A stretch of DNA of 64,000 bases from Macrostomum hystrix (lineage: Eukaryota > Animalia > Platyhelminthes), in contig CATNEN010000038.1 of NCBI GenBank assembly GCA_950097015.1, positions 4,588,001 through 4,652,000 on the forward strand. Reading direction: 5' to 3'. Below the pieces are notes generated by a model that was given only the letters and a program-made list of their open reading frames with translations, did not search any database and was not told the origin of the DNA. Positions within the stretch are counted from its first letter, which is position 1. Every line of letters begins with the position of its first letter. Made by a program: the position numbers and the translations under genes. Of this stretch, positions 13,387-21,457 are shown in pieces.

Positions 13387-14214
13387 GATAGATCGATCGA
13401 TAGATAGATAGATAGATAGATAGATAGATAGATAGATAGATAGATAGATAGATAGATAGATAGATAGATAGATAGATAGATAGATAGATAGATAGATAGA
13501 TAGATAGATAGATAGATAGATAGATAGATAGATAGATAGATAGATAGATAGATAGATAGATAGATAGATAGATAGATAGATAGATAGATAGATAGATAGA
13601 TAGATAGATAGATAGATAGATAGATAGATAGATAGATAGATAGATAGATAGATAGATAGATAGATAGATAGATAGATAGATAGATAGATAGATAGATAGA
13701 TAGATAGATAGATAGATAGATAGATAGATAGATAGATAGATAGATAGATAGATAGATAGATAGATAGATAGATAGATAGATAGATAGATAGATAGATAGA
13801 TAGATAGATAGATAGATAGATAGATAGATAGATAGATAGATAGATAGATAGATAGATAGATAGATAGATAGATAGATAGATAGATAGATAGATAGATAGA
13901 TAGATAGATAGATAGATAGATAGATAGATAGATAGATAGATAGATAGATAGATAGATAGATAGATAGATAGATAGATAGATAGATAGATAGATAGATAGA
14001 TAGATAGATAGATAGATAGATAGATAGATAGATAGATAGATAGATAGATAGATAGATAGATAGATAGATAGATAGATAGATAGATAGATAGATAGATAGA
14101 TAGATAGATAGATAGATAGATAGATAGATAGATAGATAGATAGATAGATAGATAGATAGATAGATAGATAGATAGATAGATAGATAGATAGATAGATAGA
14201 TAGATAGATAGATA
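13387..14214. repeat. (GATA)n microsatellite, ~830 bp
   Basis: Near-perfect tetranucleotide run. Confidence 0.98.
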
Positions 14215-14464
14215 GATAATGAAGAACAGAGGCCACGCACGCAGTTCAGGCAGTTGCTTGCTGATTAAGAAACAAAAAAGTTGACTATTAAATTACCAAT
14301 ATTTCGGCCAAAGTTTGGCCTTCGTCAGGGTATTATTGAAAAAACGAAAATAAATTTTAAAACGAGTTACAAGGTTAATAATCAAATTTTAGAGTCAATT
14401 AGAGTCAATGGGTTTAAAAGGCGTCTCAATGTAGGCATGTTGCCATCGCTGTGCGGGAGCAGGT
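14215..14464 (-). mobile_element. Solo 250-bp terminal repeat (pLTR) of the Penelope-like element
   Basis: Same sequence and boundaries as 16210-16459 and 20874-21123; (GATA)n on both sides. Confidence 0.9.
14294..14332 (-). ncRNA. Minimal type-I hammerhead ribozyme (copy 1)
   Basis: Minus strand reads TACC-CTGACGA-A-GGCCAAA-C-TTTGGCC-GAAA-TA-TT-GGTA: core CUGANGA/GAAA, stem I TACC/GGTA, stem II GGCCAA/TTGGCC, minimal palindromic stem III. Confidence 0.8.
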
Positions 14465-16209
14465 AGATAGATAGATAGATAGATAGATAGATAGATAGAT
14501 AGATAGATAGATAGATAGATAGATAGATAGATAGATAGATAGATAGATAGATAGATAGATAGATAGATAGATAGATAGATAGATAGATAGATAGATAGAT
14601 AGATAGATAGATAGATAGATAGATAGATAGATAGATAGATAGATAGATAGATAGATAGATAGATAGATAGATAGATAGATAGATAGATAGATAGATAGAT
14701 AGATAGATAGATAGATAGATAGATAGATAGATAGATAGATAGATAGATAGATAGATAGATAGATAGATAGATAGATAGATAGATAGATAGATAGATAGAT
14801 AGATAGATAGATAGATAGATAGATAGATAGATAGATAGATAGATAGATAGATAGATAGATAGATAGATAGATAGATAGATAGATAGATAGATAGATAGAT
14901 AGATAGATAGATAGATAGATAGATAGATAGATAGATAGATAGATAGATAGATAGATAGATAGATAGATAGATAGATAGATAGATAGATAGATAGATAGAT
15001 AGATAGATAGATAGATAGATAGATAGATAGATAGATAGATAGATAGATAGATAGATAGATAGATAGATAGATAGATAGATAGATAGATAGATAGATAGAT
15101 AGATAGATAGATAGATAGATAGATAGATAGATAGATAGATAGATAGATAGATAGATAGATAGATAGATAGATAGATAGATAGATAGATAGATAGATAGAT
15201 AGATAGATAGATAGATAGATAGATAGATAGATAGATAGATAGATAGATAGATAGATAGATAGATAGATAGATAGATAGATAGATAGATAGATAGATAGAT
15301 AGATAGATAGATAGATAGATAGATAGATAGATAGATAGATAGATAGATAGATAGATAGATAGATAGATAGATAGATAGATAGATAGATAGATAGATAGAT
15401 AGATAGATAGATAGATAGATAGATAGATAGATAGATAGATAGATAGATAGATAGATAGATAGATAGATAGATAGATAGATAGATAGATAGATAGATAGAT
15501 AGATAGATAGATAGATAGATAGATAGATAGATAGATAGATAGATAGATAGATAGATAGATAGATAGATAGATAGATAGATAGATAGATAGATAGATAGAT
15601 AGATAGATAGATAGATAGATAGATAGATAGATAGATAGATAGATAGATAGATAGATAGATAGATAGATAGATAGATAGATAGATAGATAGATAGATAGAT
15701 AGATAGATAGATAGATAGATAGATAGATAGATAGATAGATAGATAGATAGATAGATAGATAGATAGATAGATAGATAGATAGATAGATAGATAGATAGAT
15801 AGATAGATAGATAGATAGATAGATAGATAGATAGATAGACAGACAGATAGATAGATAGATAGATAGATAGATAGATAGATAGATAGATAGATAGATAGAT
15901 AGATAGATAGATAGATAGATAGATAGATAGATAGATAGATAGATAGATAGATAGATAGATAGATAGATAGATAGATAGATAGATAGATAGATAGATAGAT
16001 AGATAGATAGATAGATAGATAGATAGATAGATAGATAGATAGATAGATAGATAGATAGATAGATAGATAGATAGATAGATAGATAGATAGATAGATAGAT
16101 AGATAGATAGATAGATAGATAGATAGATAGATAGATAGATAGATAGATAGATAGATAGATAGATAGATAGATAGATAGATAGATAGATAGATAGATAGAT
16201 AGATAGATA
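14465..16209. repeat. (GATA)n microsatellite, ~1.75 kb
   Basis: Near-perfect run; GACA variants near 15840. Confidence 0.98.
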
Positions 16210-16459
16210 GATAATGAAGAACAGAGGCCACGCACGCAGTTCAGGCAGTTGCTTGCTGATTAAGAAACAAAAAAGTTGACTATTAAATTACCAATATTTC
16301 GGCCAAAGTTTGGCCTTCGTCAGGGTATTATTGAAAAAACGAAAATAAATTTTAAAACGAGTTACAAGGTTAATAATCAAATTTTAGAGTCAATTAGAGT
16401 CAATGGGTTTAAAAGGCGTCTCAATGTAGGCATGTTGCCATCGCTGTGCGGGAGCAGGT
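16210..16459 (-). repeat. 3' terminal direct repeat (pLTR), 250 bp
   Basis: Matches 20874-21123 and 14215-14464. Confidence 0.92.
16289..16327 (-). ncRNA. Minimal hammerhead ribozyme (copy 2, 3' repeat)
   Basis: Same motif as 14294-14332. Confidence 0.8.
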
Positions 16460-20835: not shown

Positions 20836-20873
20836 TTCGACACAAGTCGCTACCTGAACTGGTCCTGGGATGA

Positions 20874-21123
20874 GATAATGAAGAACAGAGGCCACGCACG
20901 CAGTTCAGGCAGTTGCTTGCTGATTAAGAAACAAAAAAGTTGACTATTAAATTACCAATATTTCGGCCAAAGTTTGGCCTTCGTCAGGGTATTATTGAAA
21001 AAACGAAAATAAATTTTAAAACGAGTTACAAGGTTAATAATCAAATTTTAGAGTCAATTAGAGTCAATGGGTTTAAAAGGCGTCTCAATGTAGGCATGTT
21101 GCCATCGCTGTGCGGGAGCAGGT
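20874..21123 (-). repeat. 5' terminal direct repeat (pLTR), 250 bp
   Basis: Matches 16210-16459. Confidence 0.92.
20953..20991 (-). ncRNA. Minimal hammerhead ribozyme (copy 3, 5' repeat)
   Basis: Same motif as 14294-14332. Confidence 0.8.
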
Positions 21124-21457
21124 AGATAGATAGATAGATAGATAGATAGATAGATAGATGGATAGATAGATAGATAGATAGATAGATAGATAGATAGATA
21201 GATAGATAGATAGATAGATAGATAGATAGATAGATAGATAGATAGATAGATAGATAGATAGATAGATAGATAGATAGATAGATAGATAGATAGATAGATA
21301 GATAGATAGATAGATAGATAGATAGATAGATAGATAGATAGATAGATAGATAGATAGATAGATAGATAGATAGATAGATAGATAGATAGATAGACAGATA
21401 GATAGATAGATAGATAGATAGATAGATAGATAGATAGATAGATAGATAAATAAATAA
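21124..21457. repeat. (GATA)n microsatellite, ~330 bp
   Basis: Tetranucleotide run decaying into AAATAAATAAT. Confidence 0.98.

Follow-up and report, generated by a model that had tools for sequence, protein, structure and literature searches.

A probable Neptune-like Penelope-like element with its nuclease ahead of the tail module, embedded in (GATA)n in Macrostomum hystrix

Introduction

Penelope-like elements (PLEs) are retroelements whose reverse transcriptases (RTs) are sister to telomerase; in vitro work covers only a single full-length PLE protein (PMC11167929). Among the endonuclease-bearing PLEs, all 18 proteins displayed in Fig. S7 of PMC8557442 (Penelope/Poseidon, Nematis, Neptune and Hydra, three of them Neptune) have a tail module that precedes the nuclease. 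A first open reading frame (ORF1) of esterase type has been published for Neptune1_Ren and BRIDGE1_FR (PMC3905857 Table S1), as well as for fish and mollusc Neptune-like PLEs (PMC5408684). Minimal hammerhead ribozymes have been described for metazoan PLEs including Neptune (PMC4209133), and direct and solo pseudo-long terminal repeats (pLTRs) are ordinary PLE features (PMC3846280). In addition, a bias toward microsatellites has been published for Neptune, Naiad, Chlamys and Hydra, and how PLEs choose microsatellites is listed as an open question (PMC8557442).

Here, we analyse a 64-kb window (the whole stretch of 64,000 nucleotides under study) from contig CATNEN010000038.1 of the flatworm Macrostomum hystrix, which carries a two-ORF PLE with repeats and (GATA)n tracts at its ends. 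Beyond the window, the evidence came from contigs of four public sequencing runs, homologous proteins and related loci. At a probability of roughly 70%, the element is a young copy of a Neptune-like PLE with an esterase-fold ORF1 and a nuclease ahead of the tail, which likely uses frameshifting and likely inserted into (GATA)n by target-primed reverse transcription. Most of the novelty that the original prediction proposed for it is a combination of published PLE traits. The reversed domain order, a conserved slippery junction, a dead esterase and a GATA target were not found in the literature searched, Repbase and Dfam being outside its scope.

Identity of the element

Read on the minus strand, the locus consists of (TATC)n, a pLTR (21123-20875), ORF1, ORF2, a second pLTR (16459-16211), 1.75 kb of (TATC)n, a solo pLTR (14464-14216) and 0.83 kb of (TATC)n. 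The features of ORF2 are as follows.

18784-16646, minus strand: ORF2, 712 amino acids, telomerase-like RT plus endonuclease
16694-17116, minus strand: zinc-finger linker (CX4CxxC, 17116) plus GIY-YIG endonuclease, immediately following the RT thumb
16462-16686, minus strand: C-terminal tail module (..PIVIPF....AY.K.R.L.D.L), out of frame here, past the ORF2 stop
16672-16673, no strand assigned: five-base loss in this copy, the bases being present in all four public runs

The RT motifs GxxF (18646), DKG (18325) and YIDD (17572) are all found in ORF2 on the minus strand. The marks of endonuclease-bearing PLEs are present, namely a telomerase-related RT with GxKF/Y and DKG, a GIY-YIG domain with CCHH (together with the R/H/E/N residues) and, at the level of the motif, pLTRs with a minimal hammerhead. 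The search with ORF2 gave 2763 homologues among 7991 scored candidates, and the best 120, which were examined further, are RT/GIY-YIG proteins; the closest, P0001, is 69% identical and has the same domain order. The structure model of another homologue, P0002 (predicted local distance difference test 93, predicted template modelling score 0.84), matches telomerase RT (TERT) best (Z 19.0, root-mean-square deviation 3.9, 308 residues aligned), and its nuclease domain has a match in I-TevI (Z 11.7, root-mean-square deviation 1.6, 90 aligned). Thus the PLE identity proposed from the sequence holds. A PDB sequence search with ORF2 gave nothing significant and the Atlas searches no usable match (top score 0.87), while a local Pfam scan, which found no significant match for either window ORF, also missed the RT and is therefore weak alone.

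By the motif criteria of PMC8557442, the element falls with the Neptune/Nematis type and outside Naiad, Chlamys and Hydra. Naiad and Chlamys were rejected since ORF2 has no N-terminal nuclease, and Hydra, which lacks CCHH and has DKT for DKG, since ORF2 has both CCHH and DKG; Athena and Coprina are devoid of an endonuclease, and ORF2 carries one. The CX2-5CxxC linker before the nuclease is a Neptune mark and occurs here as CX4CxxC. However, the nuclease is not C-terminal as in Neptune, because the tail comes after it, and we therefore call the element Neptune-like and do not file it as a member of Neptune.

The nuclease lies ahead of the tail

The canonical Neptune elements Neptune1_Ap, Neptune1_Ac and DreriNep1 share with the window family DKG, CX2-5CxxC, the CCHH GIY-YIG domain, pLTRs, the hammerhead and the microsatellite bias, whereas their order is thumb, tail, zinc finger and nuclease, compared with thumb, zinc finger, nuclease and tail here (PMC8557442 Fig. 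S7). In canonical-order relatives, the tail module comprises about 60 amino acids between thumb and nuclease, and a profile built solely from such relatives identifies the window tail with an expect value (E) of 4.6e-10. Restoring the five bases at 16672 brings the tail in frame with ORF2, and in P0001 the tail is in frame and C-terminal of the nuclease. Based on the run sequences and P0001, the family order is therefore thumb, zinc finger, nuclease and tail, and this copy is damaged. The loss is private to this copy and cuts the last 70 or so codons off ORF2, which also has two private amino-acid changes relative to the runs; owing to the five-base loss, the copy is probably unable to make the full protein. 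Consequently, of the claim that the ORFs are essentially intact, the two overlapping minus-strand ORFs stand and the integrity of ORF2 does not, while the young age claimed for the insertion is supported.

The rearranged endonuclease position is real and is not confined to this copy. Among the best 120 homologues, the tail is C-terminal of the nuclease by profile in 91, and in a further 13 the nuclease directly follows the thumb, as judged by a spacing of 118-136 residues (elsewhere 117-141 in the profile-assigned reversed group, as against 177-209 in the canonical group). The reversed order thus occurs in 104 of the 120 and the canonical order in 16, which is no estimate of frequency, since the ranking of homologues favours the query's own order. 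The CX2-5CxxC linker is kept by 102 of the 104 reversed-order homologues. As a separate observation, 13 of the 16 canonical-order homologues (within P0017-P0111), nested in the clade of the window, are without this linker. The tail is predicted to fold as beta-alpha-beta-alpha in models of both orders. In the fold search of a homologue against telomerase, the aligned range stops at residue 535 and the tail falls outside it, so that the modelled fold lends no support to the tail as part of the RT fold.

Then, did the reversed order arise once? RT-core trees were built from 70 rows taken from homologues and loci, two of which were removed for being short or long-branched. A 60-row clade (100/98) contains the window together with every sampled esterase-ORF1 locus; reversed-order lineages are basal in this clade, and 15 canonical-order rows are nested among reversed-order rows (98/96). 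The best trees need three changes of domain order, and a single clade for the reversed order is not rejected by the approximately unbiased test (p 0.37 and 0.16); the nuclease-only tree is uninformative. These patterns suggest either one gain followed by reversal or several gains. It weighs against our reading that the trees hold no named Neptune sequence. The swap may have proceeded by partial tandem duplication, which is usual in PLEs, and subsequent deletion; no two-tail intermediate was present among the rows scanned with the tail profile.

A precedent for a nuclease module that shifts its position is provided by Naiad and Chlamys, which share the microsatellite bias but differ in having an N-terminal nuclease and, for the most part, no canonical hammerheads (PMC8557442). 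A widespread group in which the nuclease and its neighbour module have been swapped, perhaps repeatedly, widens what is known of the mobility of the nuclease module, and this group merits inclusion in PLE classification and annotation profiles.

ORF1 ends in an esterase-like domain

ORF1 contains the following features.

20904-18700, minus strand: ORF1, stop to stop (734 amino acids); 20835-18700 from the first ATG
20065-20406, minus strand: conserved domain of ORF1 (HH..IRPA..HY..W), following an Arg-rich stretch (24% Arg)
19452-19732, minus strand: internal duplication of 150 bp in the low-complexity linker of ORF1
18763-19272, minus strand: C-terminal SGNH-esterase-like domain without catalytic Ser and His

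A search with the single full-length ORF1 sequence gave one weak match among 5321 candidates, and homology emerged only with profiles. Altogether 59 related loci (6 and 53) were fetched, and an upstream ORF ending in an SGNH-like domain is present in ten of them, which are those with the ten highest RT scores; weak Pfam matches to Lipase_GDSL_2 were obtained for the ORF1s of three of the four relatives scanned. With a profile from six loci, the six-frame scan of the window recovered its ORF1 at E 3.6e-9, and the first PDB match of a profile of the window and four loci is the ZfL2-1 ORF1 esterase 4C1B (E 1.5e-6). For the ORF1 domain, a profile including the window matched 1941 cluster representatives, 535 of them at E<=1e-30. 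The C-terminal domain also scores E 1e-16 against a profile of the top 150 independent homologues, and residues 167-280 score E 4e-25 against a profile of 88 homologous ORF1s. Therefore, the "gag-like" ORF1 of the original prediction belongs instead to the SGNH-esterase class, as in Neptune1_Ren and BRIDGE1_FR (PMC3905857).

Where SGNH esterases have GDS and DxxH, the window ORF1 has GDE and DLVS, and the reading as an active esterase was rejected on account of the replaced catalytic Ser and His. These residues are kept in 146 and 137, respectively, of 150 ORF1 homologues. From its sequence, the SGNH domain of the window is thus predicted to be a catalytically dead esterase. Neptune1_Ren and BRIDGE1_FR share with it the C-terminal SGNH ORF1 upstream of RT/GIY-YIG and the Neptune-type zinc-finger linker (PMC3905857; PMC5408684), and differ in that the window esterase lacks the catalytic Ser and His, the comparison being one of ORF1 class. 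ZfL2-1 ORF1p (PDB 4C1B) likewise combines an Arg-rich stretch with a C-terminal SGNH fold, but ZfL2-1 is a long interspersed nuclear element with an active esterase and an apurinic/apyrimidinic endonuclease. The two-ORF layout, suggested to be new, is already in print for Neptune elements: the Fundulus (killifish) Neptune repeat.CL27 also has two ORFs, with RT and GIY-YIG in ORF2, whereas its ORF1 is 420 nt long, does not overlap ORF2, and has no homology reported in the available part of the account (PMC12602865).

Two further observations concern the make-up of ORF1. Positions 19452-19520, a segment of the duplication, match contigs that have other flanks and a word depth of about 1000-1900, compared with 7-14 for the element body (runs X3 and X4); ORF1 may here have taken up part of another, high-copy repeat. 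In the relative L003 (192-2654), a NADAR domain (Pfam E 3.9e-8) lies between the conserved N-terminal and SGNH domains of ORF1, and a comparable NADAR-like stretch was seen by eye in L001 (203-1486).

The ORF1/ORF2 junction

ORF1 and ORF2 overlap by 85 nt, with ORF2 in the -1 frame.

18742-18736, minus strand: slippery heptamer A AAA AAC in the ORF1 frame, inside the 85-nt overlap

This arrangement is conserved in relatives, as expected of the frameshift-type junction proposed for the element. ORF2 lies in the -1 frame at nine of the ten esterase-ORF1 loci, L010 having a further break. An in-frame slippery heptamer at the end of ORF1 also occurs at nine of ten (T TTA AAC at eight loci and A AAT TTC at one; L009 has no usable heptamer), or in seven of eight families, as L004-6 are one family; the background is 21 per 3034 codons. 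Moreover, 111 of 150 homologous ORF1s terminate in matching L/F-N residues, and contigs of two of the four runs cover the overlap with no indel there. The two ORFs are thus likely joined by -1 ribosomal frameshifting, to judge from these sequences.

An improbable alternative is that ORF2 is expressed by splicing or reinitiation and that the overlap is incidental. PLEs are known to have introns (PMC8557442), and two points about this copy speak for such expression and against frameshifting: the structure downstream of its slippery site is weak (z -1.3), and no pseudoknot was found behind it. However, several relatives have clearer predicted stems or pseudoknots behind the heptamer, which keeps its position in relatives just ~35-50% identical in RT. 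In addition, the first Met of ORF2 is residue 159, beyond the conserved GxxF and DKG motifs.

Could the element belong to an already curated two-ORF Neptune family of the Neptune1_Ren/BRIDGE1_FR type, whose order and frameshift are on record? The published esterase ORF1s of those two elements and of the fish and mollusc PLEs are in line with this, and with 535 ORF1-domain clusters at E<=1e-30 the group is so large that curators probably met it. According to the legend to Fig. 1 of PMC8557442, a frameshift with a pseudoknot may set ORF1 apart, in a clade that the available text leaves unnamed; therefore, a frameshifted PLE ORF1 may be known already. Nevertheless, we consider such membership rather unlikely, as 18 of the 18 proteins in Fig. 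S7 place the tail before the nuclease, and no account of a nuclease ahead of the tail was met in the literature searched, some key papers also being outside its scope. A 2026 retrozyme preprint gives nuclease positions, in its available portion, just as upstream or downstream.

Terminal repeats and (GATA)n tracts

The features outside the ORFs are listed below.

20875-21123, minus strand: 5' pLTR
16211-16459, minus strand: 3' pLTR, starting 2 nt past the stop codon of the tail module
14216-14464, minus strand: solo pLTR, its junctions being those of the 5' pLTR at the 5' side and of the 3' pLTR at the 3' side
16289-16327, minus strand: minimal type I hammerhead motif, core from 16323, predicted cut after 16293
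20850-20912, minus strand: predicted 12-bp RNA stem across the pLTR/ORF1 junction, with the junction and the 5-6 target-matching nt in the loop
~21125-21448, no strand assigned: (GATA)n tract upstream of the element
~14466-16213, no strand assigned: (GATA)n tract between solo and 3' pLTR, 1.75 kb, two variant units
13387-14218, no strand assigned: (GATA)n tract 3' of the solo repeat, 832 bp

The three repeats were said to look identical, and they are: each is 249 bp long, with 100% identity. Because the pLTR starts 2 nt past the stop codon of the tail module, it is the 3' untranslated region. The idea that the element mimics an LTR retrotransposon does not hold, given that the repeat is the 3' untranslated region and that direct and solo pLTRs are ordinary in PLEs. 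A true LTR-like element, or a mimic with fixed ends whose repeats are regenerated by strand transfer, would explain that the direct repeats are identical, that a solo form exists and that the frameshift is gag-pol-like. Nevertheless, it is the least probable of the readings considered: the repeat ends are not TG..CA, the 3' repeat is directly preceded by coding sequence, and RT, nuclease and tail together make up the whole of ORF2. Pfam, which also missed the RT, gave no match to an integrase, protease or RNase H family in either ORF; the telomerase-like RT, the esterase-class ORF1 and the varying 5' ends in contigs likewise stand against it. No TATA or initiator motif was found on the pLTR sense strand.

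The hammerhead motif consists of a short helix I, a bulged base, a long helix II and a palindromic helix III region, and occurs in the other two repeats, where its cores are at 14328 and 20987. A strict minimal-hammerhead descriptor, applied to both strands of the window, matches solely in the three repeats (three matches), and it matches 0 of 4000 random 249-mers of like composition. The hammerhead proposed for the element is thus supported as a motif. An Rfam scan gave no hammerhead and one chance-level match, the motif having come from the purpose-written descriptor.

The 3' end of the pLTR has 5-6 nt in common with the target repeat, and it sits in a stem loop only at the copy where ORF1 follows. 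The 12-bp stem at this junction is equalled by 0 of 217 element-body windows and by 7 of 1000 shuffles. The predicted stem-loop is reminiscent of the Anolis Poseidon element PAc, in which internal RT initiation has been shown in a stem-loop near the pLTR/ORF junction (PMC11167929). PAc shares the pLTR-ORF-pLTR arrangement and the pLTR hammerhead as well, but has a single ORF, AT-rich targets and a 'tail' extension on genomic copies (PMC11167929). No such 30-40 bp DNA extension is found on the copies here, and a target-site duplication is invisible inside a microsatellite.

As predicted, the element is associated with GATA: three tracts flank the repeats, and a run X1 contig joins the pLTR 3' end to (GATA)n. 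No PLE with GATA as target was met in the literature searched. The fixed repeat boundary of the original prediction is not supported as a family-wide 5' boundary, since contigs have other 5' ends. The deepest X1 contig passes through 16459, the 5' boundary, without a break; no GATA junction at 16459 is listed for three runs, and the rows of the fourth at repeats were dropped. Contigs thus give no support to a fixed 5' boundary across the family, which is weak evidence, as contigs lose rare forms.

Several of these points weigh against our reading. The strict hammerhead descriptor is positive in just one of ten related loci. The whole-fold z-score of the junction stem is modest (-1.9), the stem was spotted post hoc, and priming in PAc needs no homology with the target (PMC11167929). 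The case for GATA targeting comes from this locus and a single contig junction, and both may represent one insertion. Two 5' ends of run X3 contigs, at 16484 and 16486, enter non-repeat DNA.

Is the solo repeat a product of retrotransposition? At close to an even chance, the solo repeat and the long tracts reflect local recombination or slippage in the GATA array (or assembly): duplication of the unit, then pLTR-pLTR recombination, would leave a solo copy with both original junctions. The solo copy is 100% identical and does agree exactly with the 5' pLTR at its 5' junction and with the 3' pLTR at its 3' junction, and this 5' junction is in no contig of the three informative runs. Furthermore, the window is rich in long tandem arrays, and the solo pLTRs of Adineta have been attributed to recombination or deletion (PMC3846280). 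However, internal initiation with run-off at the RNA 5' end yields the same structure, additional short pLTR-type contigs of run X3 end 17-27 nt from the 5' boundary, and the loss of rare forms from contigs makes the missing junction a weak argument.

A possible insertion cycle

For a Neptune-like PLE inserting by target-primed reverse transcription, the following steps may be proposed. An RNA starting near the 5' pLTR would encode ORF1p, with its Arg-rich stretch, conserved helical-type domain and dead SGNH domain, whose role, by analogy with ZfL2-1 ORF1p, is probably RNA packaging or membrane binding. A minority of ribosomes would slip at A AAA AAC and produce an ORF1-RT-endonuclease-tail fusion, slippage being proposed because ORF2 has no Met before the conserved GxxF and DKG. 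The zinc-finger/GIY-YIG module would nick (GATA)n, and the free ...GATA 3' end would pair with the 5-6 nt at the pLTR end, which lie in the loop of the stem that this end forms with the beginning of the ORF1 region. Reverse transcription would then proceed through the pLTR; if the RNA is tandem or circular, it would go on to copy the entire body and another pLTR. The solo repeat would result from short products or from recombination between pLTRs, and two palindromic hammerheads could, from their sequence, cut as a dimer, a step with no proven role. A bolder version, which we regard as very doubtful, is a large unnamed lineage with the nuclease inside an RT-plus-tail unit, which would be a third nuclease position next to the N- and C-terminal ones; in the present family, the RT itself would build the kilobase (GATA)n tracts at internal chromosome sites, telomerase-style, by copying the 5-6 nt loop template again and again. 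With its conserved putative -1 frameshift, dead esterase, and (GATA)n target with a candidate priming site, the family suits the study of microsatellite choice by PLEs.

Host gene and other observations

The element lies in the following intron.

8911-23454, plus strand: host intron of a THIK (KCNK13-like) two-pore K+ channel gene

The plus-strand exons ending at 8910 and starting at 23455 have KCNK13/THIK-1 as best match (E 1e-17 and 6e-58), the intron boundaries are GT..AG and the exon phase fits. The element is therefore antisense within the first coding intron of a THIK-type channel gene, where it had been placed from the sequence. AATAAA on the host-gene strand in each pLTR provides three possible early polyadenylation signals in the intron; the effect of the insertion on the channel gene is probably small.

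Microsatellites also accompany some relatives: L002 (4018-4069) has a (GT)n end about 270 bp past the stop codon, and telomere-like CCCTAA-type runs are found in the 3' region of L004, L005 and L007. The 53 loci L007-L059, in genomes filed as bacterial, bear PLE RTs, some with many copies and microsatellites, and are probably animal DNA contaminating the assemblies; among viral contigs, 0 of 69 candidate stretches were positive.

Elsewhere in the window there is no (GATA)n besides the three tracts. A large palindromic unit at 33754-37815, made of two inverted arrays of a 177-bp repeat with arms of 1471 nt that are 100% complementary, resembles either a foldback element or a feature of the assembly. 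At 58011-63423 on the plus strand are exons that, judged from their translation only, look like those of an anoctamin/TMEM16 gene.

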